40,000 nucleotides of DNA from Phycisphaerae bacterium. GTDB lineage: Bacteria; Planctomycetota; Phycisphaerae; Phycisphaerales; Phycisphaeraceae. Shown one piece after another: positions 16,073 to 40,000 of the stretch. The position numbers were made by a program, and so were the translations under genes. The stretch's first letter is position 1, and each line of letters begins with the position of its first letter. The stretch covers positions 10,032 through 50,031 of the forward strand of contig JAUHYI010000028.1 of the NCBI GenBank assembly GCA_030426385.1, given 5' to 3'. The notes under the pieces were generated by a model that was given only the letters and a program-made list of their open reading frames with translations, searched no databases and had not been told where the DNA came from.

Positions 16073-16153
16073 CGTTAGCCGCCGCCTTTATGGCGGCGCG
16101 GGGGTTTGGGGTTTATTGACGATGGCACGCCGCCATAAAGGCGGCGGCTAACG
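16073..16153. repeat. Palindromic double-hairpin element, copy 2 (between mch and the ATP-grasp gene)
   Basis: The left arm at 16073-16098 is identical to copy 1. The right arm at 16128-16153 is its perfect complement. The spacer is divergent. Confidence 0.85.
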
Positions 16154-16213
16154 GGGAATCATGCGAGAAAAATTATTGGAATCTGTATCAGTGTGTGGGT
16201 GGGAGAATTAATT

Positions 16214-18317: not shown

Positions 18318-18341
18318 CACGACGTTGTAGGGCGATCAAGT

Positions 18342-19439: not shown

Positions 19440-19440
19440 C

Positions 19441-20076
19441 ATGAATACGGATTGTCCACGACATGTGATCAAGCTTGGCGGCAGTTTGTTGAGCCTGTCT
19501 GATTGGGGTGAGCGGCTGGTGCGTTTTTTAGCCTCGAGCGATGAGGAAGTGCTGGAAAAAGAAGGAAAAAAAGGGGGGCAAGTGGCCCGATGCGGTGGGG
19601 TGTTGGTCGTGGGTGGTGGTGGTGCTGCGGATATGGTGCGGGCATGGTGTGCGACCCATGAGATTGATGATGCGACGGGACACGAGTTGGCTGTTGATGC
19701 GATGCGGTTTAATGCGGGGATGGTCGTGGCGGTGTTGCGAAAATTAGACGTGGACTATCAGTGGGTGGCACGCGGGGACGACTTGGATCGTTTGCACGAC
19801 GGTTGCCTGGCGATCATTGATCCGGTGACGTGGCTTGCTCATGCGGACGTGCCGCGGGTCTGGCAATTCACCAGCGATTCGATTGCAGCACGCGTGGCCA
19901 CGGATATCGAGGCGGGACGTTTGACGTTATTGAAAAGCACGTTGCCGAATGACGATGATGCGGTTGCATCGGCGGGCATCGTGGATGATTGGTTTGCTCG
20001 GGCGTCGGCAAGTTTGCCTTGGGTGGAGCTGGTTAATTTGCGTGATGATGCGTTGCCGGCGTGGCGGCTGCGATGA
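19441..20076 (+). CDS. Amino-acid-kinase-fold protein of H4MPT/methanofuran clusters (MfnE-like candidate)
   Basis: N-terminal VIKLGGSLL and VLVVGGGGAAD motifs of the aspartate/glutamate/uridylate kinase fold. ATG 19441 directly follows the upstream stop (19437-19439). The upstream part of track ORF 19285-20076 is a shadow frame. Confidence 0.65.
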   Translation: MNTDCPRHVIKLGGSLLSLSDWGERLVRFLASSDEEVLEKEGKKGGQVARCGGVLVVGGGGAADMVRAWCATHEIDDATGHELAVDAMRFNAGMVVAVLRKLDVDYQWVARGDDLDRLHDGCLAIIDPVTWLAHADVPRVWQFTSDSIAARVATDIEAGRLTLLKSTLPNDDDAVASAGIVDDWFARASASLPWVELVNLRDDALPAWRLR

Positions 20077-20779
20077 TCTGCTTCAGCTCGGCGACACGTT
20101 GCGCGTCGATGGCTGATTGCCGATCGTGATTGGTGCAAGCTGCTCCACGGACCGCGATGATATCGGGACGCAATGTGGCAACCTGTTGGACAAGCTCGCT
20201 GCGCAACGAACCGGCCAGCGCGATGAATAGGCCGTCGGCATGGGCACGATTGATCCAGGCGTTGAGTTGGCCGGGCGTGGCGTGGTCCAACAATGTTTGG
20301 CCGTTTTTGATGGCGGTGTCGATCAGGATCCCCGCCGCGCGATGGGTGATGGCGTAGTCGATGATTTCATCGACAGTGGGTGTGGGTGTGGGTGGTGGGG
20401 GGGAGGTGGTGGGGGGGATTGATGCGTGGTCGGCGTAGGCGGTGGGGATCAAGCGTGGGTGGCCGGTGAGTTGTGCGCGCCAATCACGTGGCGCGTTGGC
20501 CAAACCAATTTTGACGAAATCCAGCGGAATATCGCTGGGAAAACGATCGGTTTGATCGACCAGTTCGCCCAGGGCTGCGCTGACAGGGAGGTAGGGTTGC
20601 GATTGATTCGCCTGTTGTTGTTGGTGTTGTTTGACGGTGGCGACGATCGCTCGAATCACGTCATGGTCAGCGCGACCCAATGCGCCATGGGCGGGTTCTT
20701 TGATATCGATGATGTCAGCGCCACCCGCCATGGCGGCGCGGCATTCATCGACATGGCGCACACTGACCAGCAATTGCAT
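20033..20779 (-). CDS. mfnB: (5-formylfuran-3-yl)methyl phosphate synthase (MfnB, DUF556 family), methanofuran biosynthesis
   Basis: MQLLVSVR...EC..A..GGADIIDIKEP..GALG, DFVKIGL, ILIDT..K and ALAGSL motifs of the MfnB family. It contains Q-rich and PPPPTPTPT insertions. Confidence 0.8.
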   Translation of the reverse strand: MQLLVSVRHVDECRAAMAGGADIIDIKEPAHGALGRADHDVIRAIVATVKQHQQQQANQSQPYLPVSAALGELVDQTDRFPSDIPLDFVKIGLANAPRDWRAQLTGHPRLIPTAYADHASIPPTTSPPPPTPTPTVDEIIDYAITHRAAGILIDTAIKNGQTLLDHATPGQLNAWINRAHADGLFIALAGSLRSELVQQVATLRPDIIAVRGAACTNHDRQSAIDAQRVAELKQIIAAATPATHHHAN

Positions 20780-24210: not shown

Positions 24211-24341
24211 TATTCAAGACCCATCAAACCCAATTGAGCCGACGAAACACATGAAATGACACATGTCAGGCAAGCAAGGGAAACGCAGGGTACGTGGCCG
24301 ACGACGGCAGTGCTGGGCTGGTGTGGGGGGGGGGTGGGGGG

Positions 24342-25229
24342 TTAGGCTTGGGGTTCAGCGGCGGCGACGGGCTCAGCCGGTGAGGCTGGTGGCGTGGCCG
24401 GTGCTGCGGGGGCTTCGGTTGTTTCGGCAGCGGCGGTTTCACCAGCGGCCGGGGCTTCGCTATTGTCAGCCGAGAACATGGCTCGTCGGCTACGTTTGCG
24501 TTGCGGTTCACCGCTGGCATTGTTGTCTTGACCGCGGGCAGCCACGGTACGCGTGCCTTTGCCTTCGTTGACGGCGGCACACAATTGCGAGATGACCACT
24601 TCGATCGAACGCATGGCATCATCGTTGCCGGGGATGGCAATGTCAGCCATGTCGGGATCCGAATCGGTGTCGATCAGGCAGATGGTGGGGATGCCGAGTT
24701 TACGGGCTTCCTTGACCGCGTTGGTTTCGCGTTTGACATCGACGATGACCAATGCGCCGGGGAGCTTGGTCATGTTGCGAATGCCGTCGAGGTTGCGTTT
24801 GATTTTGGTGCGTTCGCGCATCAACTGTGATTCCATTTTCTTGGAATAGTTGTTGATTTCGCCGGACTCGACGAGGTTGTCGAGTTCATCAAGGCGTTTG
24901 AGGCGTTCGCGAATGGTGCGGAAGTTGGTGAGCGTGCCACCGAGCCAACGTTCGGTGACGTAAGGCATGCCGGTTTCGCCGACGATGGTTTCGATGCAGT
25001 TGCGGGCCTGTCGTTTGGTGCCGACGAAGAGGACGTCTTTGCCCGAGCCGACCAGTTGTGTCAGGTATCGTCGAGCGAGCAACAAGCCCTTGACGGTGGT
25101 TTTCACATCAATGATGTGGATCTTGTTGCGTTTGCCGTAAATGTACGGCGCCATCTTGGGGTTCCAGTTGGTGGCACGGTGGCCAAAATGGATACCGGCT
25201 TCAACGAGGTCTTTGACGAGAGATGCCAT
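24342..25229 (-). CDS. rpsB: 30S ribosomal protein S2
   Basis: [10 protein letters not shown]....[43 protein letters not shown] upstream. The C-terminal tail is A/P/E-rich. Confidence 0.95.
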
Positions 25230-25510: not shown

Positions 25511-25582
25511 CCACCCCCCCCACATTCCCCCCCACACGTACCCACATTTCCCCTCCGTGCCTCCCGCATTTCCCCCGCAATT
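25511..25582 (-). repeat. G-run repeat block (C-rich on the plus strand), intergenic upstream of rpsB
   Basis: ccaccccccccacattcccccccacacgtacccacatttcccctccgtgcctcccgcatttcccccgcaatttc. Confidence 0.8.
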
Positions 25583-25824: not shown

Positions 25825-25866
25825 CGAATAATCCCAATCCCGATAAAAACCATGCATGTGGTAAAT

Positions 25867-25946
25867 CGTTAGCCGCCGCCTTCATGGCGGCGCGATGGTC
25901 TAGGTTTGACGCACGTTTCGCGCCGCCGTGAAGGCGGCGGCTAACG
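25867..25946. repeat. Palindromic double-hairpin element, copy 3
   Basis: The arms at 25867-25892 and 25921-25946 are the same as in copies 1 and 2, except for paired substitutions in the arm loops (TTTAT to TTCAT, ATAAA to GTGAA). Confidence 0.85.
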
Positions 25947-26024
25947 ATAAAGCACGCGAAATCGCGCGTGTGTATGTTTGTGGGGTGGGTATTATACGGA
26001 TTACGATAAATACTCGCGCGTAGA

Positions 26025-26097
26025 TTTTTATTAGCTCCCGGTGAATACCGGGAGTTTGTGTGAAGGGAAATTTGAGGCCGCGCGAGTTTTTAATGGG
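26025..26097 (+). repeat. 73-bp repeat (left copy) containing the hairpin CTCCCGG-tgaata-CCGGGAG followed by TTTGTGTG
   Basis: It is the exact reverse complement of 39925-39997. I derived this by hand base by base. Confidence 0.85.
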
Positions 26098-26120
26098 GTG
26101 GATATCATCCCGAAATGATG

Positions 26121-26197
26121 ACAAGAAATGGCGAAGAAATGGCGAAGGAATAGCCAAGAAATGGCCAAAGAATTGCGGAGGAAATGTGGGGGGGGGT
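26121..26197 (+). repeat. 11-nt tandem repeat (about 7 units) decaying from ACAAGAAATGG to a terminal G9 run, abutting the stop codon of the transferase gene
   Basis: acaagaaatgg cgaagaaatgg cgaaggaatag ccaagaaatgg ccaaagaattg cggaggaaatg tggggggggg. Confidence 0.8.
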
Positions 26198-27699
26198 TAG
26201 GCTGATTTGCCGGTGGGGCTGAGGATATCGGGGCCGACTGACGAGGGGGGCAATGCGTTGGCTGAGGCTGAGGCTTGGGCGGTCTTGGCGGCTTTGGCGA
26301 GATTGGCCTGGGTTTGTGCCAGTTTGGCCTGATGGGAGCTGGCCAGAGCGCGTTTGCGTCGGATGCCCATGATTACGCCGAGGCAGAACGTGGCAAAGAG
26401 CCAGATACCCAGCACGATCATGGCATGACGCAGGCGAACCCCAGGCAGTGAAAGCGAACAGCCCAGCGCTGCGAAGCCAATGCCCGCGATATAGAGGGTG
26501 ATGACCGCCTGTTTGACGGATAGGCCCATGCGGATGAGTTTGTGATGGAGATGTTGGTTGTCAGGGCTGAGAATACCGTGCCCGTGGATGGTCCTGCGGA
26601 TGATGGCCAAGAGGGTGTCGGTGATGGGCAGGCCGAAGACGACCAGTGAGGCGACGACAAAGCGTGGTCCGCTCTCGGCAGTGTGAGCGAAGAGGAGGAT
26701 GGTTGAAATCGCGAGGAACCCGAGCAACAGCGAGCCGGTATCGCCCATGAAAATGGACGCGGGGTTGAAGTTGTAGACGAGGAAGCCGAGCAAGGCCCCG
26801 ATGAGCGCCAGGCCCATGACGATGCGCACCGGATCGGATACCGGGTCACCGCCGATGGCGTAAATATGATGGCTGATGTTGGTTTGGCTGATGAAGTCGT
26901 AGTGCTGGATGGCGACCAAACCGGCGAGAATCAGGAAGCCGACACATGCGATGGCGGTGACGCCCGCGGCTAATCCGTCGAGTCCGTCAAGCAGGTTGAC
27001 GGCATTACACCCGCCGATGACGAAGATCGCGATGATGGCAGCGCCGAGGATGTAGGTGAATGTGGGGTCGGTATCAATGCCGCCTGCGCGGAAAAATTCG
27101 AACGCCAGTTTTTGTCCGACATCCTGCGTGGCCAACCAGGCGGCGGCGAGCATCTGGCCGCCGACCTTGACACGCGGGCTGATGGCATAAATGTCATCAA
27201 GCAAGCCGACGATCACGATGATGATGGCACCGATGAGGATGGCGGTGGGAAACGCGACGTGGGTGATTGGCGAGATGTGTTCAGGGGTGGGATGCGGGGT
27301 CATGCTCAAGCTGACGGCGATACCTGCCAACCAGCCGAAGAAAATCGCGACTCCGCCCAGGTAGGCGATGGGTTTGCGATGATGTTTGCGGACCTCGTCG
27401 GGACGATCGACGATGTTGTTGGAGATGGCCAGACTGCGCAGGATCGGGGTGCTGAGCAGGCTGAATGCCAAGGCCGCGACGAAAACCCAGCGATAGTACC
27501 AGATGATTCCGAACAGGCTCATGGAAAATTCAGGGTGAGCGTCAGCATGGGTCGTCTGGGCGATGAATGACGAAGAGAATGACGAAGAAGCTGAGATAGG
27601 TGATAAATCAGCCACGGCCACCACCGGCTCAATCAAGGATTGAGCGATCAATGCCAGGGAATAGGGCAATAGCGGTGCGGTCACTGCGAACGACTCCAC
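26197..27699 (-). CDS. Glycosyltransferase family 4 polyprenyl-phosphate sugar-1-phosphate transferase (WecA/MraY-like)
   Basis: D.P..RK.H..P..YLGG, NAVNLLDGLDGLAAG and FMGDTGSLLLGF motifs with multiple TM helices. An alternative start at ATG 27522 (MSLFGIIWYY) would remove the overlap with the upstream gene. Confidence 0.85.
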   Translation of the reverse strand: MESFAVTAPLLPYSLALIAQSLIEPVVAVADLSPISASSSFSSSFIAQTTHADAHPEFSMSLFGIIWYYRWVFVAALAFSLLSTPILRSLAISNNIVDRPDEVRKHHRKPIAYLGGVAIFFGWLAGIAVSLSMTPHPTPEHISPITHVAFPTAILIGAIIIVIVGLLDDIYAISPRVKVGGQMLAAAWLATQDVGQKLAFEFFRAGGIDTDPTFTYILGAAIIAIFVIGGCNAVNLLDGLDGLAAGVTAIACVGFLILAGLVAIQHYDFISQTNISHHIYAIGGDPVSDPVRIVMGLALIGALLGFLVYNFNPASIFMGDTGSLLLGFLAISTILLFAHTAESGPRFVVASLVVFGLPITDTLLAIIRRTIHGHGILSPDNQHLHHKLIRMGLSVKQAVITLYIAGIGFAALGCSLSLPGVRLRHAMIVLGIWLFATFCLGVIMGIRRKRALASSHQAKLAQTQANLAKAAKTAQASASANALPPSSVGPDILSPTGKSA

Positions 27700-29054
27700 G
27701 ATGTCCCGGTTTTCCCCGAATGTCGAGGGGGCTTAACGTCGTTGGTAGAAATCTCGGCCTGGCCGGGGTTTACGTTGACGTTGCAGGCTGGCTGGCTGGC
27801 CGATCTCGCTGCCACTTCGGCCTGCCTATCGGCCGATTTTGCCCCCGGTTTTACCACCGATTGTGCCCCCTGATGCTGGTTCGTGGACGCGGTACGCTCG
27901 AGACTGATCAGGTCGTCGAGCGTCTGGTCAAGCGATATTGTAGCGGAAAACCCGGTGGCTGTCTGTAGTTTTTCCAGCGCGGGGGCCCGTCGCATCAGGT
28001 CATCAAAATTTTGCGCATACGCTTGTTCATAAGGCACATACGCGAGTGTCGAACGCGAGTTGGAACGCGCGATGATACGCTTGGCCAGATCAGTGATACT
28101 GATCGGCTGGGCACGGCCGACGTTGAACACCTGGCCGTGACAGGCGGGCGTCTCAACCAGGCGAATCAGGGCCTCAACGGTGTCACGGACATCGCAAAAG
28201 CAGCGGGTCTGAGTGCCGTCGCCGTAAATTTCCAGAGGCAGGCCCGCGACGGCACGTTGGACAAAACGCGGGACAACCATGCCGTAGTTGCCGATCTGTC
28301 GTGGGCCGATGGTGTTGAATAGTCGAGCGACGACGCAGCGAGCCTTGCCGTTCTGGTGATACGCCAGGGCCATGTGTTCGTCGAGGGCTTTGCTATGGGC
28401 ATAAGACCAACGCGGGCTGGTCGTCGGGCCTAGTTCCAGCGTTTGGTCCTCACGCATCGGAATGCGGTCGGTCATGCCATACACCTCACTCGACGAAGCC
28501 ACCAACACCCCCCCCACGTTCCCCCCCACATTTTCCCCCACGCTTCCCGCCGCATTGCTTCCTACATTTTTCCCCGCATGCTCCACATTGCCTTTGGTTG
28601 TTCCGTTTGTATTTCCGGCTGTATTTCCGCTGGCGGGGGTATTGATCAGGTTGGCGTGATTGGCGACGGCTTCGAGCAGGGCGGCGGTTTGATCGATGTT
28701 GTTGCGAATGGCTTCGACGGGGTTTTCCACGACCAGCCGCACGCCGACGGTGGCCGCCAGGTGATAGACCGCGTGCACGTCAGCCATCAGTTCAGGCTCG
28801 CGTTTGAGGACAGCGGCAACCTGACCCTGTCGCCAGATGTGAGGCAATTGAGTGAAATGGGCGGGCAGATTTTGCGATCGGCCTGTGGATAGGTCATCGA
28901 TGAGGATGAGTCGATCGCCGCGCTGGGCTAATCGATGGGCCAAATGCGAGCCGATGAATCCTGCGGCACCGGTGATTAAGGTGGTTCGGCCGCTTGGCGC
29001 ATTGCCTTGGGCCGCGGTGTCGGACGGGGGAGTTGTGGGGGGCGTGGCAGTCAA
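27681..29054 (-). CDS. NAD-dependent epimerase/dehydratase (extended SDR, nucleotide-sugar modifying)
   Basis: TGAAGFIGSHL Rossmann motif, SSSEVYG, and YAHSK (YxxxK catalytic). TTG start. It carries an in-frame insertion of about 45 aa made of 12-nt G-run repeats. Confidence 0.85.
   Translation of the reverse strand: MTATPPTTPPSDTAAQGNAPSGRTTLITGAAGFIGSHLAHRLAQRGDRLILIDDLSTGRSQNLPAHFTQLPHIWRQGQVAAVLKREPELMADVHAVYHLAATVGVRLVVENPVEAIRNNIDQTAALLEAVANHANLINTPASGNTAGNTNGTTKGNVEHAGKNVGSNAAGSVGENVGGNVGGVLVASSSEVYGMTDRIPMREDQTLELGPTTSPRWSYAHSKALDEHMALAYHQNGKARCVVARLFNTIGPRQIGNYGMVVPRFVQRAVAGLPLEIYGDGTQTRCFCDVRDTVEALIRLVETPACHGQVFNVGRAQPISITDLAKRIIARSNSRSTLAYVPYEQAYAQNFDDLMRRAPALEKLQTATGFSATISLDQTLDDLISLERTASTNQHQGAQSVVKPGAKSADRQAEVAARSASQPACNVNVNPGQAEISTNDVKPPRHSGKTGTSWSRSQ
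28507..28640 (-). repeat. 12-nt G-run repeat array inside the epimerase gene (in frame), with a purity gradient
   Basis: Coding strand: aatgtggagcat gcggggaaaaat gtaggaagcaat gcggcgggaagc gtgggggaaaat gtgggggggaac gtgggggggg; encodes GNVEHAGKNVGSNAAGSVGENVGGNVGG. Confidence 0.85.
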
Positions 29055-29161
29055 TCAAATCCCTCAACACGTCAGCATGACGTTGGCGTTACGTCCGGGT
29101 AGGGCAGGACCGAGTGGTGGAGCCGATTGAGGGAGACAAGTGAGCGGCGAGTGGTGCGCCA

Positions 29162-29228
29162 TGGGGGAAACGAGTGGGGGCGGAGTAGGGGGGCGGAGTG
29201 GGGGGCAGTGGGGGGGCAGTGGAGGGGT
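29162..29228 (+). repeat. G-run repeat block, intergenic upstream of the epimerase gene
   Basis: tgggggaaacgagtgggggcggagtaggggggcggagtggggggcagtgggggggcagtggaggggtg. Confidence 0.75.
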
Positions 29229-29261
29229 GAATGCGATGCTTGTTCTGAACATGCCCGCGTG

Positions 29262-29510
29262 GAACCCTGACCTCTCGGAACCCTGGCCTCCCGGAGCCCT
29301 GAACCCTGATTTTGTAACTCTGACCTCTTGTAACTTTGGCCTTTTGTAACCCTGATTGCTTGTAACCCTAATCGACTGGAACTCTGGCTTGTCGAACCCG
29401 ATGTCTTCGGAATCCAAACCCGCGAATCTAGCCCCGAAAATACCCCCCCCCCGGCCCGCCCGGAAATAACCTGCGAATCTACCTACTCCCACAGAATCCT
29501 GATCGGTTAC
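29262..29510. repeat. Phased degenerate 16-bp tandem array (11 clear units to 29435, looser to about 29510) filling the kinase-epimerase intergenic region
   Basis: Unit starts fall at 29262, 29278, 29294, then 29313, 29329, 29345, 29361, 29377, about 29393 and about 29409. Cores are GAACCCTG / TGTAAC(C/T)CTG / GAATC. Confidence 0.8.
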
Positions 29511-29581
29511 CGCATCACTTGCCTTAACCAGCCGGCTGTCGGTCATGGATGGCATGGTGACGACTGTGCTCGACTTGCGGG

Positions 29582-31861
29582 TTATGCCGGCGTTTCGGTT
29601 TCCGCTTCCTGAGTCTGGCGGGATTTTTTCTTGCGTGGCGTTTTGGGTTCGCTTTGGCCATTGCTCTTGCCGTTGCTCTTGGATTCGTTGCGGTACTGAT
29701 AGTACAAGCGGTAGTTCTGTCGGAAATAACCGCCCGCATTCGAACGTACGCCGTTGAGGATCACGCCCAGCATGTCGGCACGGTGGCCGTCGAGCATGCG
29801 AATCATACGTCCGACCATGCCGCGTTTTTCGTTCATCGCACGGACCACCACCGCGATCGCATCGACACGCTTGGCCAACAACTGCGACTCACTGGTCACC
29901 AGTGCCGGTGGGGCATCGATCACGATCAGATCGTAATCCGATTCCAATTGGCTAAGCAGGTTGCGGAACGCCGCACCCTCGAGCATTTCCGGCTGAGCGT
30001 CATGTCCCTCGCCGTTGGGCAACAGATCCACGCCCGCTTCATCATTGGTGTGAATGGCTTGCGCCAGTGATGCCTTGTTGGTTAACACGTCGACCAAGCC
30101 AGGCGTGGCACGCGTGTTCAAAATGCGATGCAAGCTGGGGCGACGGAAGTTGGCGTCGATCAGCAAGACCTTTCGGCCGTTGAAGCCCAGACTGATCGCC
30201 AGGTTGCTCGCCAGTGAACTGACACCGACGCCGCCCTTGGCCCCGACAAGCATCAGGGTCTTATAGCCACGGCGATCCATGCGGGTAAGCACACTGGTGC
30301 GGACCTGTCGGAACGATTCGGCCAACAAGCCATGCGGATCGGTGCGGACGATATTCTCGATGGTGTCGGGTTTCGACGGATCTTCTGAGGCGTCGGGCAA
30401 AGAGCCCAGAGGTTCCACATCGGGAATCAAACGCAAGTCGCTCGGGCTCTTGATGCGTTGATCCAGCACTTCGATCACAAAAATCAGCAGCGCGACCGCA
30501 CCGACAAACAGCATCGGTACACCCACGGCATAGGCACCGAGTTTTGGCGACGTGAGCACGGGCGTCGTTGGTACGAGCAATAATTTGATGCGTTCAAAGT
30601 CAGGACGCAAGCTACGAACGCGAACCAGTTCGAGTAATTCGTCGGCCTTGCCCAGACGTGACAAAATCGCATCACGGCGTTGGCTGATCGAACTGAACTC
30701 TTGGATCTTGGCATTAACGTCCTGCACGCGGGCTCGTGACTGTTCAAAGCGTTCGACAATGATCGCCATCTGGTTTTCCAGATATTCGAGATTGTCTTTT
30801 GAATTTCGCAGCTTGGCTTCATGAGTCTCGCGAAGATATTTGTCGATTTCACGGGCGCGACTTTGCTCCGCAATGCTGATGCGATCGTCGAGGTTGAGCA
30901 CTTCACGATGCTGCGGGCCATAGCGTGTTAACAATAGTTCACGGCCTTGTTCGAGGTTGTCGATGCGTGCGTCGATGGCAGCTACTTTTTCACTTTTTTC
31001 GGCCCCTAAAAGTTCATCCTGAGTGTATGTGACTCGCCCAGCAGAAGATTTTTCCAGAAGTTTCTGGTGGTTTTCTTTCGAGACTTCCAAAGCCAGACTC
31101 AGGTCGGTCAGGCGATTGGCCATTTTGTTGTATTCAATGGTCGCTTCATTTTTATTGGCATCGAGCGTGGGCAATTCGTTTTCACGGGTAAACCGTGTCA
31201 TCTCTTCCTGGATCTGCTCCAGCTCGTCGTTCATGCGATCGCTTTCCTGCACGAACAGGCGACGCACGTCGCTGGTTTGCAGTTCGTTGTTCAAGCGAAA
31301 CTGCCGCAAGAAAGTTTGAATGACCTGATTGAGCACAATCGGCAGGTCATTGCGTTTCTCTTCGCCTTGGACCGACAGGCTGATGTTGATGTAGGTTGAG
31401 CCGGACACTTGGCCCGCGCGTAGGTTGTCCTGCAGGTTGCGAATGACTTCGCGGTTGTCAGTAAATGACTGATACCAGTCGGTATTACGCACGCTATCGT
31501 GTTTGATCGCGTCTTCCAGAACTTCGTTAGAAGTGAGCACGACCACCTGGTTACGAATAAATGTCGAGACGTTGCGAGCATCAGCGCGGACATCGGCCAC
31601 GTCGTTGGCATCCCAGATGCCCGAGGGCGGAATTGTTACAGCCATCTGTGCTGACGAGGCGTACACCGGTGCGTACTTGCGCATATACACAAACACGCTG
31701 ACCCCAACGATCAAGCCCACCACAAACGCCACGATGAGCACCTTGGCGTATTGACGCAACACACGCAGCGGATCGAGCGGTGTGAAGCGAGGAGATTGTG
31801 ATGACTGCGGGCCGGGAGGGGCAGTCATGGGTGGGATAGCGGAAAGTGGGTTTGCGGTCAT
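29582..31861 (-). CDS. Polysaccharide chain-length determinant / tyrosine autokinase (Wzz + BY-kinase, EpsG/GumC-like)
   Basis: N-terminal TM helix followed by a long coiled-coil periplasmic domain and a second TM helix. C-terminal kinase with Walker A GAKGGVGVSS, A' VLLIDANFRRP, Walker B DLIVIDAPP and a Y-rich tail YFRQNYRLYYQY. Confidence 0.9.
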   Translation of the reverse strand: MTANPLSAIPPMTAPPGPQSSQSPRFTPLDPLRVLRQYAKVLIVAFVVGLIVGVSVFVYMRKYAPVYASSAQMAVTIPPSGIWDANDVADVRADARNVSTFIRNQVVVLTSNEVLEDAIKHDSVRNTDWYQSFTDNREVIRNLQDNLRAGQVSGSTYINISLSVQGEEKRNDLPIVLNQVIQTFLRQFRLNNELQTSDVRRLFVQESDRMNDELEQIQEEMTRFTRENELPTLDANKNEATIEYNKMANRLTDLSLALEVSKENHQKLLEKSSAGRVTYTQDELLGAEKSEKVAAIDARIDNLEQGRELLLTRYGPQHREVLNLDDRISIAEQSRAREIDKYLRETHEAKLRNSKDNLEYLENQMAIIVERFEQSRARVQDVNAKIQEFSSISQRRDAILSRLGKADELLELVRVRSLRPDFERIKLLLVPTTPVLTSPKLGAYAVGVPMLFVGAVALLIFVIEVLDQRIKSPSDLRLIPDVEPLGSLPDASEDPSKPDTIENIVRTDPHGLLAESFRQVRTSVLTRMDRRGYKTLMLVGAKGGVGVSSLASNLAISLGFNGRKVLLIDANFRRPSLHRILNTRATPGLVDVLTNKASLAQAIHTNDEAGVDLLPNGEGHDAQPEMLEGAAFRNLLSQLESDYDLIVIDAPPALVTSESQLLAKRVDAIAVVVRAMNEKRGMVGRMIRMLDGHRADMLGVILNGVRSNAGGYFRQNYRLYYQYRNESKSNGKSNGQSEPKTPRKKKSRQTQEAETETPA

Positions 31862-31996
31862 GGAGCAAAATCCTTACGAGTGCGTCACGCGTGTGGCCGG
31901 TTCTCCCCCGGGGTTGGGGTGGCCGTTCTATATTTTCCCATGAGGTACTCCCGCAGGGCTTCCCATTGTTTCAGTCAGCGGCGAGGGTGTCCTAGG

Positions 31997-32017
31997 CCTG
32001 AATCCTGATTCCTGATT
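31997..32017. repeat. Three tandem heptamers CCTGA(A/T)T upstream of the tyrosine kinase gene
   Basis: cctgaat cctgatt cctgatt, about 135-155 bp upstream of ATG 31861. Confidence 0.7.
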
Positions 32018-32129
32018 CTTTGGCCCTGGGGTTCTATGTCCCTGGGCTTGGTTAGGCAGGCGGGCACAAGCTGGTGCTGAACTGTCTGAATGGTTCATGT
32101 GGGGGAGTATCTTACAGGGTTGTGTCAGG

Positions 32130-35100
32130 TCATTGGGTTTCTAATTCTGCCATACGTTGGGTGGTTAAGTCCAGAATTTCTTGATCATTGGTCGATTTTG
32201 CCAGATCGAGGGCCTGATTGAGTAGATTTCGCGCTTCGATCAATCGGCCATCCTGAATCATCGTCATTGCTAAATGATAGGCTGCCGGCGCGATCGGTTC
32301 GATACTCAGGCTCATTTGCAGGGTTCTTTCGGCCTCCTGATAGCGTTTAAGCCGGTAATAGATCCATCCCAGAGTGTCGAGCAATTGGGGATCGCCTTGG
32401 CTTGAAGGGCGACTCTCCACGATTTCGTTGGCTTTTTCAGCCAGTGGGAGGGCCTGTTCGGGCAGGTTGAGGTCTTCGCAGAGCAGGTACGCCAGATTGT
32501 TGAGTGAGGCCACGTCTTCAGGCACGACCTCAAGAATTCTCTCATAGGCAGCCCGCGAAGGCTCAAAGATCTGTTGTTGATAATAACAGATGGCTCTTAA
32601 CCGATCTGCCATGATTTGCTCCGGGCTTCCCTGGATGAAACTGATCGGCTCGAGCCGAGCGATCGCCGCGCTGTAGAGTTGTTTGTTGGCTTCGAATTGA
32701 GACTTGGCCAGTTCCAGCCAATCGCTTTGGGCGGGAAGCTCGAGCTTGGACAGTTCGCCTAGCAATTGATCCTTGCCCCAGGCCTGTTCCATCTGGTTGG
32801 CGACGATCAGAACTTGCTGGATGCTTCGGCACTGTTCCATGGCCGTGGCAAAGTCCTGGCGTGCTTCTTCGGCTTGCGAAAGCTTGGCTTTCGTATGGCC
32901 ACGCAGTGCCAGCATAATCGGCTGGTTCTGGACATGTTCTTCGTGAGCTTGCAAGGTTGCCAAGGCATCGCGGAGCTTGTTGTGGTTGATGAGCATCTGC
33001 GTCAAGTCGGCCACGGTCTTAGGCGTCGCGTTGAGTTTGACCAGTTCTTTCTGGAAGCCGATCGCGCTGTCGATCCGTTTGGCCTGCAAGTCGAATTGAA
33101 CTTGATAGGTCAGCCACGACGGGTCATCGGGAAACATTTCGCGGCTTTCTTTGAGCAGGTCACGCAACAATGTGGTACGGCCTGCCGCTTGATACAGCCG
33201 GACCAGCATATGTCGGACCTGGTTGTATTCGGGGGCATATTCAAGAAGTTTACGCGCTTCGGTCGTAGCCAGCGTGAAGTCCTGGCGTGAGGTATACAGT
33301 TCTACTAATTTGATACGAGCCTGAATCATCGCCGGATTGATGTTGATCGCGCGGTTGAGTTGTGTGATCGCCTGCGCTTCCTGCCCAGGGATTTGCAACA
33401 GCGAGGTGGCGCGTTCGAAATACACCGTCGGATTGTTCGGCACCATTTCAGCGGCTTTGTCGAAGTAACCGATGGAATCCTGGAATCGGCCACGCGTTCG
33501 CGCAATCATGCCTCGCAGCATTAATGAACTGGCGCTGGGCGATTCGTTTTGCATGGCTTGATCAAGCGTTTTCTCCGCTTCATCAATTTGATTCTGACGC
33601 AGCAACGCTTCGGCCAGACGCAGGCCGACGCGGTTGTCGTTGTTCTTGTTTTTCATCAGTTCGCGATACAGTTCGATGGCATCTTCATTGCGTTGCAAAG
33701 AGAACAACGCATCGGCCAATTGCCGGGTGCCTTCCTGGATCGAAGGGTCTTCGACTTTGCGCGATGCGCGATAGTAGGCCAGTGCGGTATCCACTTCGCC
33801 CATTTGTTGCATGAACCGTCCAGCCATCAACCAGTCGATGGATTGCGCGTCGTCGCCGAGCTTGCTGGTGTAGTCGATCAATGTCTGGCGGGTGCCTTCG
33901 AGATCGCCTGCCGCGCGTTTGAGTTGGGCCTGGGTAAGCACGTTGGCGCGGTTCATGCCTTCCTCAGCGACGATGGCGTCGAGCGTTTGTTGGGCTTCGA
34001 TCGGCTTGTCGATATCTGCCAGTAACACCGCCAGCGTTCGGCGATTGACAATATCTTTGGGGTTGTCCTTGGCTTGTTTTCGGCGATATTCAAGCACTTT
34101 CATGGAATCGCCATGTTCGCGTTCGTAAGCCAGATACGTGTTGAGCAAATTGGTGTTGCCAGTGGCGTAGTCGCTGGCTTGTTTGAAATGCAACAGGGCT
34201 GAGCTGAAATCGCCCAGTGCATTGAATGCCAGGGCCATGCCGCGATGGACGGCGGCGGTGTCGGGTTTGAGTCGCAGTGCTTCCTGATACGCATCGCGGG
34301 CCGAGGCGTAATCACCTTGGGCCATCAGTGCATCACCGAGCACGCGCCAAACGGTGGCGTCGAGCGAGTTGAGTTTGCTGGCACGTTTGAGACTGGTCAC
34401 CGCCAGATTGATGCGTTGTTCGGCCAATTCCAGACGACCGCGATAGACCAGGCCTTGCACACGATCAAGGTTTTGCTTGCTGGCGACTTGTGCCAGATTG
34501 CGTGCTGTATCGTAATCTTCGTTTTGCAATGCTTCTTCGAAACGAATCTGAACGATTAACGGGTGCGTCGCATCAATGGTTTCTGCGGCGACCAATTCTT
34601 TCTCGGCATCTTCCACGCGATTGCTGGCAACCAGCAGGCGATATTTGTTCAGGTGTTTTTGGATAGGCGTTTGTGAAGTGCTGTCGATCTGTTCGGTCAG
34701 CAAAGCCATCGTGTCGATGCTGCTGTCGAACTGACTGGCCATCAGGTTCAACACCTGCTCGGTGGTGCCCGCTTGTTTGGCGCGATCGAGATAGAGCTGC
34801 TTATTGTCCGGATCCAATTGCAACACCATTTGCAACAGCGAGGTATTGGTCGGCTCGGCTTCGAAGCGTGCTCCTGCCAGTGCGAGGGCTTCATCCTTGC
34901 GGTCGGCTTTGTAATAGACACGGATCAGGATTTGTGCCAACGCTGGATCGTCTGCGGCTCCGATGGATTCGAGCAAATCAATCGCGTCGCTGTATTTTTG
35001 CTCAGCCATCAGAAGTTGCACTTTCAACTGACGGGCAATTTTGTTACCCGGCTCGTTTTGCAGACAGTATTCCAATTGCTGGCGGGCCAGGTCGAGTTGG

Positions 35101-36611
35101 CGTGTGCCGATGTAGATTTCTACCAGACGCAGACGTCCGGGAATGTAATTCGGCTGGGCTTTGATCACCGTCAACAAACGCTCAGCAGCCGCGCCGGAGG
35201 TTCCCATTTTGCGATGGGCTTCGGCAGCGAGTACGAGGGTTTCCATGTGACTGCCGCCGAACTGCGTGTTGGCGACTTCAAGTTTTTCAATGGCATCAAC
35301 CCATTGGCCACGCTCGATCGCCACGCGTCCGGACAACAGGTTCACAATGCCGCTGTCACCACTGGTGTCACGCAATTCCTTGATCAGATCATCAACGCGT
35401 GCCAACAGTTCTTTACGCTCTTCGAGCGATTTGTTTTGGGCCTGGACCAATAGCAATGTGGCGCTTTGCTCCGCCGCCACGTAACGATATTGCGAAACCA
35501 TCAGTGCCTGAAGCGGGTCGGTCTTGTAGGTCGTTTGGCGAATGTCGTCGAAAATTTCGTAAGCCTCGTCAGACTTTTGCGACAGCCGCAACATTCGCCC
35601 GTATGCGAGTTTCAAACGCAACGCTTTGGGGTTGGCTTCCACAGATTTGGCTAACAAGGCGACCGCACGTTCGAGGCCCTGGCTCCAACGCGTGTTGTCC
35701 GCATCCTGATCAGAAGGCTCAGGGAATAGTTGGATCATCAACTCGACAATGCCAAGTATCGTGTTGGGCTGATCCAGATAATTGTCGGCTTGCGATTCGA
35801 GTTGGAGCACCACTTCGCGGGCATCTTTTTCTTCGTCGGCTTGTTGCAAGGTGCGCGTCAGTTGCAACAACGGCTCAGGATTGTCCGGATTTTTTTGGCT
35901 GGCTTCACGCAGTATGTTGATCGCAGTAATGCGATGGCTTTCGACGTCATCGAAACGGATGCCGGTCTTTTTGATGCGCGCTGCTTCGGCTAAATGCCAT
36001 TTCGCGTCGGCATAGATCGTCTCCAGATCGTCGGGCAGTTGTGCGAGGACAAAATCAATATCCTGACGTGTCAGTTCCCGTTCTGTCTGATTCAGGTCCA
36101 GGGTGTTCAGGCGTTCAACCTGTGCGATGGCTCGATACTTTCGGGCTAACAGATTGTCGGGCTGACTACCCAGCAACGAGGTGGTGCGTTCGTAAACGCG
36201 CTCCCACACTCGCGTATCGTTCATTTCTCGGCCCAAGGAAATGAACATCTCCATCAGGCGCGTCATCGCTTCTTCGTTGGTCGGATCAATATTGAGCGCT
36301 CGGCCCCACCAGTTACGCATCTGATCGATCAGACTGCGAGCTTGTTTGGTATCCGATATCTGGAACTTGCTGACCGTGTCGGTGTAACGCAGAATCAACT
36401 CGAGATTGTTCTTGTCCACCTTCAACGCTCGGCCATACTGCTGAGCGGCACGTTCATAATCGCCTTGCCGATAAAAACTGTCCGCACGAGCGATATACTC
36501 GGCAGGATCGGTCTTGGCAGTTACCCACCAGGCGGCAATGACACCACCACCGGCCATCAGTAGGATAGCGATCAATAAAACAACGAATTTTGTATTAACT
36601 CGGCCTGCCAT
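32130..36611 (-). CDS. Very large membrane-anchored TPR-repeat protein (PrsT-like, EPS/exosortase-associated)
   Basis: N-terminal TM anchor FVVLLIAILLMAGGGVIAAWWV, followed by dozens of 34-aa TPR-like repeats (recurrent A..Y..AL...P.N, G.Y..A...). Confidence 0.85.
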   Translation of the reverse strand: MAGRVNTKFVVLLIAILLMAGGGVIAAWWVTAKTDPAEYIARADSFYRQGDYERAAQQYGRALKVDKNNLELILRYTDTVSKFQISDTKQARSLIDQMRNWWGRALNIDPTNEEAMTRLMEMFISLGREMNDTRVWERVYERTTSLLGSQPDNLLARKYRAIAQVERLNTLDLNQTERELTRQDIDFVLAQLPDDLETIYADAKWHLAEAARIKKTGIRFDDVESHRITAINILREASQKNPDNPEPLLQLTRTLQQADEEKDAREVVLQLESQADNYLDQPNTILGIVELMIQLFPEPSDQDADNTRWSQGLERAVALLAKSVEANPKALRLKLAYGRMLRLSQKSDEAYEIFDDIRQTTYKTDPLQALMVSQYRYVAAEQSATLLLVQAQNKSLEERKELLARVDDLIKELRDTSGDSGIVNLLSGRVAIERGQWVDAIEKLEVANTQFGGSHMETLVLAAEAHRKMGTSGAAAERLLTVIKAQPNYIPGRLRLVEIYIGTRQLDLARQQLEYCLQNEPGNKIARQLKVQLLMAEQKYSDAIDLLESIGAADDPALAQILIRVYYKADRKDEALALAGARFEAEPTNTSLLQMVLQLDPDNKQLYLDRAKQAGTTEQVLNLMASQFDSSIDTMALLTEQIDSTSQTPIQKHLNKYRLLVASNRVEDAEKELVAAETIDATHPLIVQIRFEEALQNEDYDTARNLAQVASKQNLDRVQGLVYRGRLELAEQRINLAVTSLKRASKLNSLDATVWRVLGDALMAQGDYASARDAYQEALRLKPDTAAVHRGMALAFNALGDFSSALLHFKQASDYATGNTNLLNTYLAYEREHGDSMKVLEYRRKQAKDNPKDIVNRRTLAVLLADIDKPIEAQQTLDAIVAEEGMNRANVLTQAQLKRAAGDLEGTRQTLIDYTSKLGDDAQSIDWLMAGRFMQQMGEVDTALAYYRASRKVEDPSIQEGTRQLADALFSLQRNEDAIELYRELMKNKNNDNRVGLRLAEALLRQNQIDEAEKTLDQAMQNESPSASSLMLRGMIARTRGRFQDSIGYFDKAAEMVPNNPTVYFERATSLLQIPGQEAQAITQLNRAININPAMIQARIKLVELYTSRQDFTLATTEARKLLEYAPEYNQVRHMLVRLYQAAGRTTLLRDLLKESREMFPDDPSWLTYQVQFDLQAKRIDSAIGFQKELVKLNATPKTVADLTQMLINHNKLRDALATLQAHEEHVQNQPIMLALRGHTKAKLSQAEEARQDFATAMEQCRSIQQVLIVANQMEQAWGKDQLLGELSKLELPAQSDWLELAKSQFEANKQLYSAAIARLEPISFIQGSPEQIMADRLRAICYYQQQIFEPSRAAYERILEVVPEDVASLNNLAYLLCEDLNLPEQALPLAEKANEIVESRPSSQGDPQLLDTLGWIYYRLKRYQEAERTLQMSLSIEPIAPAAYHLAMTMIQDGRLIEARNLLNQALDLAKSTNDQEILDLTTQRMAELETQ

Positions 36612-36669
36612 GGCAATATTCCTCTAGGCTCATCGGGTCATCCCGCGTATCAGTTAATCGATCCTCAAT

Positions 36670-36764
36670 CCCCCCCACATCCCCCCCACATCCCCCCCAC
36701 ATCCCCCCCACATCCCCCCCACATTTCCCCCGCATTCAACCCCCTACATCCCCCGCATTTTCCC
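36670..36764 (-). repeat. Five perfect 11-nt units (GGGGGGGATGT on the minus strand) plus degenerate units; G-quadruplex-capable
   Basis: Plus strand C7ACAT x5 at 36670-36724, then ttcccccgcattcaaccccctacatcccccgcattttccc. It lies about 60-155 nt upstream of the TPR start (36611), on that gene's sense strand. Confidence 0.9.
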
Positions 36765-36988
36765 TGGTCTGGTACACCCGCTATTTTTTTCGATCCAATT
36801 CCCCGCCTGTTATTTGTTTCGTGGTTTTTATTGGCCACATTTAGTGTGGTTTGCCATTTTGTGTTTCACGTTGGCGGTTGTATTGGACTTTTACAGGTGA
36901 TATTTCATGTCGGTTTTTACGTGTACACGTTTTTTCGGTTAATTCGTGGGGCACGATTGGTCGTTATGGCTTTGGTTTTTGCGATGGC

Positions 36989-39358
36989 TTAGCTCCCCGG
37001 CTCATGATCAGTGTAGGCGACTTGGTTGGCGGGGTTATCAGTGGATTGGTTCGCGGGCCAGAGGCCGGCTTTGACATCTACCCAATCAGGCAAACAGGCG
37101 AGCACTTCGGGCATTGCTTGCGACAAAAATTTCGAGGCAATTTCGCGGGCCTTCTCCGGGTCTTCGACCTGATGGACCAGCACTTCGATTTTGCAGTAAT
37201 AGCTGTATTGATCGCGCAGATCGAATCCCTGCAATCGCACATGATCGGGCGTCGGCAGGAACTTGCCATTGGCGCTGAAAAAATAGATGACGTTCGATGC
37301 CGGAATCGCTTGCGTACGTTGGGCGCTCTGGGCTGGGCTGAATGTAAAAATCGTGGCAGGAATATCAAGCCTGGCGACACGCACCGGCTTGTCGGCGATT
37401 TCGGAAAAGGCGACGATTTCTTCCTGGTTCTGCGCGTCGTGTTGGGTTTGGTATTGCGAGCCGGACAACGTGACGTCGGCGATGGTTTTGTTGATCGCTG
37501 CGGCGCCGCCTGCCACGAAACATCGATCGGGCACATGCGGGACGGTGTCGGCATCGCCGGTGTAGTAGGCCACGTGTAAACGCACGATCGAGCCGGGCGT
37601 ATTTTCAGGCAGGCTGGTGTCCATGTAGGTCCGGCTGAGGTATTGCTCGGTGCCCAGCTCTTCGAGAATTTCGGCGCTCATCAAATCGTCTTTGCCAATT
37701 TGTTCATAAGTCCCCAGGACGCTGGGCACGTAGACCCAGAAGGGTGATTTACGCAACGGCACGGGTTGCTTGATCAACACAACTTGCATGGCTGAGACGG
37801 TGCTGGTCAGTCCGAAAATGCCCACGACCAAAATCGCCAAGGTCAGACTCAGCGCCGCATAGGACGGTTGACGATAGCTGGCTCGCAATTCCGGTCGCAG
37901 TAACTTCCAGGTCAGCCAACTCAGCACCAGCATGCCCAGGCACGCGGTGATCAACATGGTCAACATGACCGGCTTGTTCGAATAGGGCACCAGGTCGGGT
38001 CGTATTTGCGAGACGATGCCCAACACGATGACGCTGACGAGCATGATCATGCCCAGGCCTGCGCCCAAACCCCATATGATGCGCGCGGTGGGTTTGGTTT
38101 GCCCGTTATGTGTTGGCGATGCGTTGCGATCGGTTCCGGCTTGGTGGTTGGCCAGCCAGATCACCATGTGATACAGCAGAACGACCAGTCCGACTGGAGA
38201 GCGCACCTGTCGGCACAGGGTGCCCAGATTGATGTCATCCTCGCTGGAGGCGCGGTGTGAGTTGGCGGACGTTTGTTCAGACTTGGTGGTGCGTGGGGTT
38301 GACTGAGGTGTGGTGGCCGTGGTGGGTGAGGTTGTGGGTGAGGTTGTGGGGGAGGTGGGGGGTGAGGTGGGGGATGTGGGTGGGGGGTCGGTCACGATGA
38401 TGTGATCGAGAACCCAGCCGAGTAACAGGAACAAGCCCGCGGCGGGAATGAGCATGAGCATGCCGACGAAGGTGTGGAAGCTGCCCTTGGCCAGTTCGGG
38501 GTAATAGATGTGCAGCAAGCCGAGTGTGGTGACGCGGGCGATGTTGATCGAGACGGCGATGGGAACCGCCAGGGCGACCATGATCAAGCGTTGCCACCAT
38601 GTGCGGGGAATGAGAAACGCCAGCGCGACGCCCAGCGATAAAAACGCTGCGAGCATGCGTAACCCGGAACAAGCTTCGGCCACATTGAGCGGATCACTGC
38701 TGATCCATTCGCCGTTGCGATAGAAACTCAGATCGATGGTGGACCCGCGATTTTCGACATCGAAATTAAACAGCATGCCCAGCAATTTGAGGATGACCGT
38801 CGAGGTGCCAGCGGCGATCAATTGCAGTTTCCAAGCGATCTGTTCCCAGATGCGATCGGAGACCTTGACCGCGAAACTCAGGAACAGAATCGGAAACCAC
38901 AAGTAGCGCATCATACGCGGACCCAACAGGAATAACACCATGCCGAACAGGGCAATGATCATGCTGTAACCGCTGAGCATGTCGTTGCGTCCCGGTCCCA
39001 GCCACCAGGCATAGCTGGCAATGCCGAGCAGAAAAAATACCAGCCCAGGCAGGAAAACCTGACGGGGGGTTTGCAAGAGTGTCTCGCGATGTTGGTAGAT
39101 GTAGATGGCGCTGATGAACGGAATGATCAGGGCATGGGACCAGTCGCGATTCCACGTGGCTCCGGGAATGCTAAGGAGCACTTCGAATAGATTCGCCCCT
39201 TGGCCGTTGGTGGCGATGCGTAACATGCGTTCGAGGAAGTGGCCATGGAGAATGACAAACAGCACGCCCAACAGCGCGATCCACAGCCACGTTCGATGCG
39301 AGAGCGCCGAGCGGGTTCGCTGGTGTTTGTTGATGTGACTGATACTCGTGGTGCTCAT
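36989..39358 (-). CDS. Exosortase (EpsH/Xrt family) fused to a C-terminal EpsI-family domain
   Basis: The N-terminal polytopic domain has the exosortase catalytic motifs EACSGLR, NIARV and FHTFVG. A P/T/S linker and extra TM helices follow. The C-terminal EpsI-like domain has AYYTGDADTVPHVPDRCFVAGG. Confidence 0.85.
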   Translation of the reverse strand: MSTTSISHINKHQRTRSALSHRTWLWIALLGVLFVILHGHFLERMLRIATNGQGANLFEVLLSIPGATWNRDWSHALIIPFISAIYIYQHRETLLQTPRQVFLPGLVFFLLGIASYAWWLGPGRNDMLSGYSMIIALFGMVLFLLGPRMMRYLWFPILFLSFAVKVSDRIWEQIAWKLQLIAAGTSTVILKLLGMLFNFDVENRGSTIDLSFYRNGEWISSDPLNVAEACSGLRMLAAFLSLGVALAFLIPRTWWQRLIMVALAVPIAVSINIARVTTLGLLHIYYPELAKGSFHTFVGMLMLIPAAGLFLLLGWVLDHIIVTDPPPTSPTSPPTSPTTSPTTSPTTATTPQSTPRTTKSEQTSANSHRASSEDDINLGTLCRQVRSPVGLVVLLYHMVIWLANHQAGTDRNASPTHNGQTKPTARIIWGLGAGLGMIMLVSVIVLGIVSQIRPDLVPYSNKPVMLTMLITACLGMLVLSWLTWKLLRPELRASYRQPSYAALSLTLAILVVGIFGLTSTVSAMQVVLIKQPVPLRKSPFWVYVPSVLGTYEQIGKDDLMSAEILEELGTEQYLSRTYMDTSLPENTPGSIVRLHVAYYTGDADTVPHVPDRCFVAGGAAAINKTIADVTLSGSQYQTQHDAQNQEEIVAFSEIADKPVRVARLDIPATIFTFSPAQSAQRTQAIPASNVIYFFSANGKFLPTPDHVRLQGFDLRDQYSYYCKIEVLVHQVEDPEKAREIASKFLSQAMPEVLACLPDWVDVKAGLWPANQSTDNPANQVAYTDHEPGS
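38300..38388 (+). repeat. 12-nt G-rich tandem repeat inside the exosortase gene (coding strand C-rich)
   Basis: gtgggtgaggtt gtgggtgaggtt gtgggggaggtg gggggtgaggtg ggggatgtgggt gggggg; encodes PPPTSPTSPPTSPTTSPTTSPTT on the minus strand. Confidence 0.8.
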
Positions 39359-39924
39359 CTACCCTGTTGGACTCGATTGGTGTTACGACAGTGTTAGGCG
39401 ATCTATAAAAACAGGTCTAGCCTGAATTTTTCTCCCAAACATGTGGGGTTGGTGGGAAAACATGACGGCCGAGTGGCCAGCGTTTGAATCCCTGATTTTC
39501 TCTGATTTGGCGCTAATCTCAAAATTCGCATCTTGCCAATACACATCAAACTGAAAATTATCGGATGCGAACTCGATCAAAGCGCCATCATTTCAGCGGT
39601 GTGTGACCGTCAGCGTCATGGCTGGCGATACCGTGTTTATCGCCAATTTCGTGCCTAATCATGACCCTGACAAGCCAGAACAGCAAACAACGTCTTAATC
39701 TTACGCCGGTTTCGACCTGGAAGTTCGCCCGATATGGAAAAACATGGCTCGATTAACAATTGTCGACGGCGTGAAACTCATGGAGTCGGCCCGCATTTGT
39801 CTACATGATGGCGGGACTACGCTGGGTAGGGCTTTGCTAGGTGAGTGCAACCGGCGCGGTTAGAGCGTCTTGCAAAATTTCTGTCCTAACGATACTCACG
39901 CTGGACTGGTCATTTAATACCCAT

Positions 39925-39997
39925 CCCATTAAAAACTCGCGCGGCCTCAAATTTCCCTTCACACAAACTCCCGGTATTCACCGGGAGCTAATAAAAA
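39925..39997 (-). repeat. 73-bp repeat (right copy), inverted relative to 26025-26097; probably continues past the window end
   Basis: cccattaaaaactcgcgcggcctcaaatttcccttcacacaaactcccggtattcaccgggagctaataaaaa is the exact reverse complement of 26025-26097. One mismatch follows, then a further match up to position 40000. Confidence 0.85.
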
Positions 39998-40000
39998 ACT

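Follow-up and report, generated by a model that had tools for sequence, protein, structure and literature searches.

A ~114-nt palindromic intergenic repeat at the exosortase operon of a Phycisphaerae bacterium

The DNA analyzed here is a stretch of 40,000 nt from a Phycisphaerae bacterium (assembly GCA_030426385.1, contig JAUHYI010000028.1, 10,032-50,031; "the window", to whose positions all coordinates refer unless a contig is named). Its right-hand part carries an exopolysaccharide (EPS)/exosortase operon, which lies between two inverted copies, c1 and c2, of a structured intergenic repeat; all open reading frames (ORFs) between these copies are on the - strand. To the left of c1 lie rpsB (24342-25229) and tsf, likewise on the - strand, and c2 is cut by the right end of the window. 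In a first-pass annotation the two copies had been read either as paired, inward-facing terminator or insulator elements or as recombination substrates allowing inversion or mobilization of the bracketed 13.8-kb cassette.

Extent, copies and fold of the repeat

The inverted arms extend over 26022-26105 and 39917-40000 (84 nt, 96% complementary). As the first-pass annotation had stated, 26025-26097 and 39925-39997 are exact reverse complements of each other, and the match reaches the window end with a single mismatch, which lies at 26024; on the other side, mismatches are found at 26098 and 26102, and the similarity fades from 26106. The 53-nt core pattern, searched with up to 3 mismatches, has only two sites in the window, namely those of c1 and c2, and no match in 100 dinucleotide-preserving shuffles; the match of the arms is far above chance level.

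At ~114 nt, the full repeat is longer than the 73 bp noted earlier. Its outer boundary comes from L005, a Logan contig of 2404 nt from sample ERR3420974, which extends the sequence rightward as had been proposed. The 3′ end of L005 reads GGTCAC followed by TTATACGGATTACGATAAATAC, and since TTATACGGATTACGATAAATAC equals window positions 25992-26013, c2 runs on to ~40030, ~30 nt past the window end; the inner boundary was set from the alignment of three copies. c1 and c2 differ at 3 of 106 comparable positions, with 8 nt of c2 unseen, and thus form an inverted pair of ~114 bp at 97% identity. A second Logan contig of the same sample, L002, is 100% identical to window 31044-36697, by which L005 can be assigned to the organism of the window.

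L005 carries the gene of a Poly_export protein (P0130), which was found by a protein search with the export protein of the related locus L003 as query (72% identity) and is encoded on one 51,915-bp NCBI contig with the proteins of the window. The gene lies directly to the right of c2, hence outside the bracket. Its canonical terminator (L005 2205-2237; 15-bp stem, 3-nt loop, T6) is located 146 nt upstream of c2 and is followed by a palindrome resembling repetitive extragenic palindromic (REP) sequences (L005 2247-2338) and, 44 nt further, by c2 itself. The 5′ end of L005 starts inside a third copy, c3 (L005 1-47; GTGAGGAGAAAATTTAGGCCGTGCGAGTTTTTAGCGGGATGGCTAT), whose 5′ half is unseen; it is ~80% identical to c1 and c2 over 46 nt (cmsearch 47.5 bits, E 1.7e-8), with changes in its 3′ arm such as CGTGCGAG. 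c3 has the orientation of c2, sits 2.4 kb further out, and precedes the Poly_export start by ~750 nt.

A stretch of 16.5 kb thus contains at least three copies, and each boundary of co-directional transcription units in it has one; the - strand order is unknown gene, c3, Poly_export, c2, exosortase operon, c1, rpsB-tsf. With orientations (F, forward; R, reverse) and spacers, the layout reads c3(F), Poly_export, terminator, REP-like dimer, c2(F), 560 nt, exosortase operon, C-rich 12-nt array, c1(R), REP-like dimer, ~760 nt, rpsB. c2 stands ~560 nt upstream of the exosortase start; c1 stands 3′ of the operon, antisense to it and ~760 nt upstream of rpsB. As c3 and c2 share one orientation, the exosortase operon is framed by an inverted pair, c1 and c2, solely because c1 is turned the other way. 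The notion that the repeat brackets the entire EPS locus does not hold, since the Poly_export gene of the conserved cluster and c3 lie outside c2; nor do the copies stand apart from other, diverged repeat families by their 100% identity, because the ~80% identical c3 demonstrates divergence in this family, too. A covariance model of the three copies gave no further accepted copies in the window or in the related loci; weak full-length matches to REP-like dimers (E 0.19 and 1.5) were not accepted as members. Logan contigs do end within two of the repeat copies, but contig ends are unreliable as markers of further ones, because L002 ends in unique coding sequence.

c2 is flanked by complementary sequences, CTGGTCA and TGACCAG (39896-39916 and L005 2368-2382), and looks as if it sat within the loop of an older 7-bp hairpin; the flanks on either side of c1 are not complementary in this way. 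The upstream flanks of the copies are unrelated in sequence, the shared part contains no conserved promoter, and there is no direct target-site duplication in the flanks of c1 and c2.

The whole repeat unit is an imperfect palindrome from end to end. The RNA of c1 folds into a rod in which an outer stem AAAUACUCGCGCG/CGCGCGAGUUUUU encloses a middle stem UAGAUUUU/AAAUUUGA and, at the tip, the core hairpin GCUCCCGG-UGAAUA-CCGGGAGU; the opposite (-) strand folds less stably (-33.3 kcal/mol, z -4.7). Taking the 8 unseen nt as equal to c1, c2 and its flanks also fold into one end-to-end rod (-53 kcal/mol, z -4.2), which runs on into the complementary flanks. The outer stem CGCGCGAG, which closes the 87-nt rod, is followed by TTTTTAAT; the GC-rich basal stem ACTCGCGCG/CGCGCGAGT thus leads into TTTTTAAT in the forward sense and into TATTTATC in the reverse sense, corresponding to the RNA tails UUUUUAAU and UAUUUAUC. 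With tails on both sides of its base, the predicted rod would have the shape of a bidirectional terminator. The hairpin CTCCCGG-N6-CCGGGAG followed by TTTGTGTG, which the first-pass annotation had described as facing transcripts that enter the locus, is present in both copies and oriented in that way. In c1 it has a TTAGC tag on its 5′ side (26031-26035) and TTGTGTG on its 3′ side. No family match to the repeat was obtained in Rfam, at gathering or permissive thresholds (noise only). A long-range 5′-3′ panhandle of c2 and c1 within one operon transcript was set aside, since the copies, being self-complementary, would each form a local fold.

Table 1. Positions of the repeat copies, their hairpins and the bracketed genes
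Feature	Position	Strand	Basis
c1, ~114-nt structured repeat	25992-26105	+ (forward sense)	cmsearch 152 bits; L005; three-copy alignment
c2, cut by window end, on to ~40030 via L005	39917-40000	- (forward sense)	L005
Rod hairpin of c1	26007-26093	+	RNA minimum free energy -46.4 kcal/mol, z -5.5
Core hairpin of c1, GCTCCCGG-TGAATA-CCGGGAGT, 22 nt	26034-26055	+	sequence, fold
Core hairpin of c2, same as c1 core	39967-39988	-	sequence
REP-like head-to-head palindrome dimer TTAGCCGCCGCC...GGCGGCGGCTAA, 37 nt from c1	25858-25955		
12-nt periodic array, C-rich on mRNA strand, filling the gap from GT4 stop codon to c1	26112-26196	-	
GT4/WecA-like priming glycosyltransferase, last operon gene	26197-27699	-	Pfam/NCBIfam
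NAD-dependent sugar epimerase/dehydratase of the short-chain dehydrogenase/reductase type	27681-29054	-	Pfam/NCBIfam
Low-complexity ORF, 163 aa, Pro/Gly-rich, no family match	29064-29555	-	family search
Wzz-type chain-length determinant/tyrosine autokinase	29582-31861	-	TIGR01007 above cut-off
PrsT-like tetratricopeptide repeat (TPR) protein, 1493 aa	32130-36611	-	Pfam/NCBIfam
Exosortase (EpsH) fused to EpsI-like domain, first operon gene	36989-39358	-	Pfam/NCBIfam

Related hairpins and related loci

When the window is scanned for TTAG ahead of a perfect stem of 6 bp or more, 8 sites come up (stems of 7-8 bp), compared with 1.2 expected. Six of them are the units of three head-to-head dimers (8797-8888, 16073-16153, and 25867-25946), and the other two are the cores of c1 and c2. 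Since the scan picks up both, the core of the repeat shares its TTAGC tag architecture with the REP-like family; in the repeat and in the neighboring dimers alike, the tag reads (A/G)TTAGC. A GTAG at 26020-26023 lies within the rod, away from the core stem. The relaxed motif of the repeat is AGGCCGYGCGAGTTTTTANNGGGNTGG. With the palindrome next to the Poly_export terminator, four members of the REP-like dimer family are seen in the window and L005, and c1 and c2 are each 37-44 nt away from one of them, the sequence in between being unrelated. The dimers have the form (G)TTAGCCGCCGCC-TTTAT-GGCGGCG ... CGCCGCC-ATAAA-GGCGGCGGCTAAC with variable spacers of 25-30 nt, and they are found at the 3′ ends of genes, namely after efp, mch, and Poly_export.

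Two related loci were compared, L003, the closest relative, and L004 (CP087563.1, a 7.4-Mb genome). Both have the gene order Poly_export, exosortase/EpsI, giant TPR protein, kinase, GT4, and in both Poly_export adjoins the exosortase gene; judging from these loci, the EPS gene order is vertically conserved in Phycisphaeraceae. In the corresponding spacers of both, neither a related sequence nor a bracketing inverted repeat is present. The comparison of presence and absence that had been suggested therefore separates the two: the genes are kept and the repeat is missing, which makes the repeat lineage-specific and not required by the locus. Behind the export gene of L004 there is likewise an ordinary terminator, then a spacer of ~550 nt. 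As export and exosortase genes are co-directional and adjacent here just as in the relatives, the present orientation of the operon is the ancestral one, which also argues against a misassembly at c2. In L003 (7700-8700), the 1.6-kb Poly_export/exosortase spacer is full of short tandem repeats, for example CAACGATCCAAAGT, GAACGCCTG/GGCCGCCTG, and GAGAGCGTCGGGTGGAACC, pointing to a spacer that is prone to repeats in this lineage.

In a scan of genome contigs with the hairpin pattern, in a collection without the source genome, only L001 was hit, an unrelated metagenome-assembled genome (MAG) of Chitinophagaceae. At 5019-5046, at a gene end in AT-rich DNA, it has a near-identical hairpin and tail (CTCCCGGTGAAAACCGGGAGTTTGTGTG); the match was rejected as a homologue and ascribed to chance convergence. 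Two scans of metagenomes, again in a collection without the source genome, and one of viral contigs gave no matches to the repeat, and neither did BLAST searches of plasmids and phages. A 43-aa translated query for spurious ORFs across other copies found no candidates.

The bracketed operon and its surroundings

With EpsH and EpsI, a PrsT-like TPR protein, an autokinase, a priming transferase, and, outside the bracket, the export protein P0130, the locus has the equipment of an exosortase/PEP-CTERM-type EPS locus. All specific exosortase subfamily models (XrtA versus other) remain below their cut-offs. The closest exosortase homologue is 66% identical, and the homologues point to Phycisphaeraceae or a nearby group of Planctomycetota. 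The claim that every gene between the copies is an EPS/exosortase gene on one strand stands for the strand and for the five assigned genes, but the low-complexity ORF between kinase and epimerase is not demonstrably EPS-related. Public annotations list this ORF, although it probably does not represent a real gene. The exosortase-EpsI protein of the window is absent from a collection of 5.8 billion proteins in which proteins of neighboring genes on the same NCBI contig are present; the gene may be annotated as a pseudogene or remain uncalled in the deposited MAG.

The bracket encloses the likely promoter region of the operon (39359-39916) as well as its genes. GC content is 0.52-0.59 inside the bracket and similar outside, without compositional anomaly. 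The 40-kb window contains no genes for transposases, integrases, recombinases, or invertases, and no gene for a REP-associated tyrosine transposase (RAYT; Y1 HUH transposase). Its remaining genes are housekeeping genes, that is, enzymes of the tetrahydromethanopterin (H4MPT) pathway, efp, truD, and methyltransferases. From 13273 to 20779 extends an H4MPT/methanofuran-linked C1-transfer cluster (Ftr, an Fhc-like GXGXG protein, Mch, a RimK-like ATP-grasp protein, a CitG-like protein, and 4-(hydroxymethyl)-2-furancarboxaldehyde phosphate synthase), over which the GC skew of the + strand is unusually strong (0.36-0.52).

The DNA also contains periodic G-rich/C-rich arrays of 11-12 nt with a unit of about GGGGGGAAATGT. 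Six of these (13863-13952, 16435-16536, 17750-17839, 20375-20429, 28506-28579, and 38333-38391) lie in frame inside conserved enzymes and are translated as (N/K)VGG-type repeats, as in Ftr (...GKNVVGNVGGNVGGGGGVV), the RimK-like protein, CitG (GNAGGKAGGNVGGNAGGNVGGV), and the epimerase (GENVGGNVGGV); read in a different frame, the arrays encode PTSP/PPT repeats within the linker of the exosortase and within the furancarboxaldehyde phosphate synthase. They resemble intragenic insertions of the REP or Rickettsia palindromic element type. Intergenic arrays (24322-24364, 25512-25579, 26112-26196, and 36659-36756) often stand directly 3′ of a stop codon, as after GT4 (stop at 26197) and rpsB (stop at 24342), with a C-rich and G-poor mRNA strand; speculatively, they may be sites resembling Rho-utilization sites.

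Nature of the repeat

Several known classes of intergenic palindromes can be compared with the repeat. The enterobacterial repetitive intergenic consensus elements or intergenic repeat units (ERIC/IRU) are imperfect palindromes of ~127 bp, located in transcribed intergenic regions in either orientation and in tens to hundreds of copies. With these the repeat shares its size (~114 bp), the end-to-end imperfect palindrome with a rod-like RNA hairpin, and the location between co-directional genes in both orientations; it has no sequence relation to them, belongs to a different phylum, and is documented here in three copies over the 42.4 kb covered. Correia elements, the Neisseria miniature insertion sequences (NEMIS), and other bacterial miniature inverted-repeat transposable elements (MITEs) are non-coding palindromes of ~100-150 bp at gene boundaries, which can act as terminators or processing sites. 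Here, too, a non-coding palindrome is found at gene boundaries, with near-identical beside diverged copies. Unlike MITEs, it has no terminal inverted repeats separate from the overall palindrome and no direct target-site duplication, and no related autonomous insertion sequence (IS) was identified; the window lacks transposase genes, and the plasmid and phage searches gave no hit.

REP families with the canonical tags GTAG or CGTC are known from phyla including the Planctomycetes and occur also as head-to-head dimers with spacers of 20-100 bp and nested in longer palindromes (Di Nocera et al. 2013, PMC3733652). Like REP sequences and the bacterial interspersed mosaic elements (BIMEs) built from them (PMC3733652), the repeat is extragenic at gene boundaries, has a short GC-rich core with an 8-bp stem, a loop of 4-6 nt, and a tag just 5′ of it, co-occurs with head-to-head dimers of a related hairpin, and is nested in a longer palindrome; roles in termination and mRNA stabilization have been proposed for such elements. 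The 22-nt core falls within the 20-40 bp of a REP stem-loop, though it is embedded in a conserved unit of ~114 nt, and the stem end carries TTAGC instead of GTAG or CGTC. As in intrinsic bidirectional terminators, a U-run comes after the GC-rich base of the stem in the forward sense, and the upstream A-tract provides a U-rich tail in reverse, but the structure is a rod of 87-114 nt in place of a compact stem-loop, and the core tail UUUGUGUG is weak. The organism's own Poly_export terminator differs from the repeat in this respect.

From these comparisons we consider it reasonably probable that the arms are copies of a lineage-specific, imperfectly palindromic intergenic repeat of the REP/ERIC/MITE kind in an uncultured Phycisphaeraceae-like planctomycete. 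The bracketing of the operon is probably incidental. A REP-type element would have been duplicated or transposed into spacers in which REP-like palindromes were already present, or gene conversion would have placed the copies there, and the near-identity of c1 and c2 would reflect a recent copy or conversion event rather than selection for recombination. In a transcript, the rod and the A/U tracts beside it would attenuate read-through or stabilize 3′ ends in either orientation, and in this way the repeat may attenuate read-through at unit boundaries. The first-pass annotation had conceded that the bracketing would be coincidental if its 73-mer were a high-copy element dispersed over many operon ends; within the 42.4 kb covered, the existence of c3 and the REP-type tag of the core go part of the way in that direction.

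Several observations weigh against a dispersed repeat. Only three copies are found, each of which adjoins an EPS transcription unit, and the remaining 26 kb of the window are free of copies; all three fall into the right-hand 16.5 kb of the 42.4 kb (P ~0.06 for random placement by length). The tag is not a canonical one, neither a RAYT gene nor a parent IS is seen in the window, no target-site duplication is evident, and the core hairpin with TTTGTGTG is not called by a standard consensus terminator scan. The copy at each of three EPS unit boundaries, together with the shared orientation of c3 and c2 upstream of their genes and the rod followed by U5 with an A-tract on its other side, would suit locus-dedicated insulators, terminators, or protein-binding sites, marking off the two EPS/exosortase units and protecting these from the transcription of neighbors, including that of the highly expressed rpsB-tsf. 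This is nevertheless unlikely, as L003 and L004 have the same gene order without any counterpart, c1 is opposite in orientation, the clustering is marginal and was picked post hoc, and the tag of the core hairpin is shared with an evidently dispersed REP-like family. Of the earlier terminator or insulator reading, the anatomy is real and even stronger than noted, comprising a whole-element rod on a GC-rich base, but the inner hairpin fails the terminator scan. Taken copy by copy, c2 is redundant as a terminator, given the canonical terminator of Poly_export 146 nt upstream, and no + strand gene reads into c1.

RecA-mediated exchange between c1 and c2 would invert the 13.8-kb operon as a structural polymorphism or in phase variation, and the perfect 73 bp within the ~114 bp of inverted, 97% identical sequence exceed the minimal homology needed by RecA. 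Such a use of the repeat is highly improbable: whereas invertons have repeats around a promoter segment and a site-specific recombinase nearby, the window is devoid of invertases and recombinases, the 560-nt upstream region lies in the bracket with the genes, so that inversion would leave the linkage of promoter and genes unchanged and be functionally silent, and the present orientation is that of the ancestral order. A composite transposon or mobilizable EPS cassette, with the arms as its ends, would explain inverted terminal repeats around a functionally coherent gene set, but is effectively refuted already, as the arms are 114-nt non-coding sequences instead of IS with a transposase at both ends, the cluster is vertically conserved with its export gene outside the bracket, GC content is alike inside and outside, and no direct target duplication surrounds the pair. 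Inversion and mobilization, the other half of the earlier proposal, thus find no footing at this locus. Hardly any credence is given to the view that each copy forms the 3′ part of either a small RNA gene or a cis-regulatory leader RNA; the strand-biased strong fold (-46.4 versus -33.3 kcal/mol), the U-run after the hairpin, and the sense orientation of c2 and c3 upstream of EPS genes would be in line with it, yet there is no Rfam match, promoter conservation is lacking and upstream flanks are unrelated, c1 is antisense to the operon, the copies are 560-750 nt away from start codons, and the relatives have no such sequence. It is also decidedly unlikely that the three copies form, instead of a dispersed selfish repeat, a locus-specific structured boundary set for the Poly_export unit and the exosortase operon, with c1 and c2 kept near-identical by gene conversion to serve as bidirectional insulators against rpsB-tsf read-through or for an occasional RecA-mediated inversion of the 13.8 kb.

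Summarizing, if the repeat were restricted to the boundaries of EPS units, it would represent a dedicated insulator of the exosortase locus. If, on the other hand, the favored interpretation as a REP/ERIC/MITE-like repeat is true, it would be a routine structured intergenic repeat in a poorly studied phylum, and a family of TTAGC-tagged hairpins together with a 114-nt rod element would be added to the catalogue of REP- and ERIC-like sequences. Such repeats break up short-read assemblies and are potential sites of misassembly or rearrangement in MAGs. The favored interpretation would also call for caution against taking inverted repeat copies around an operon for switches or for the ends of a cassette.

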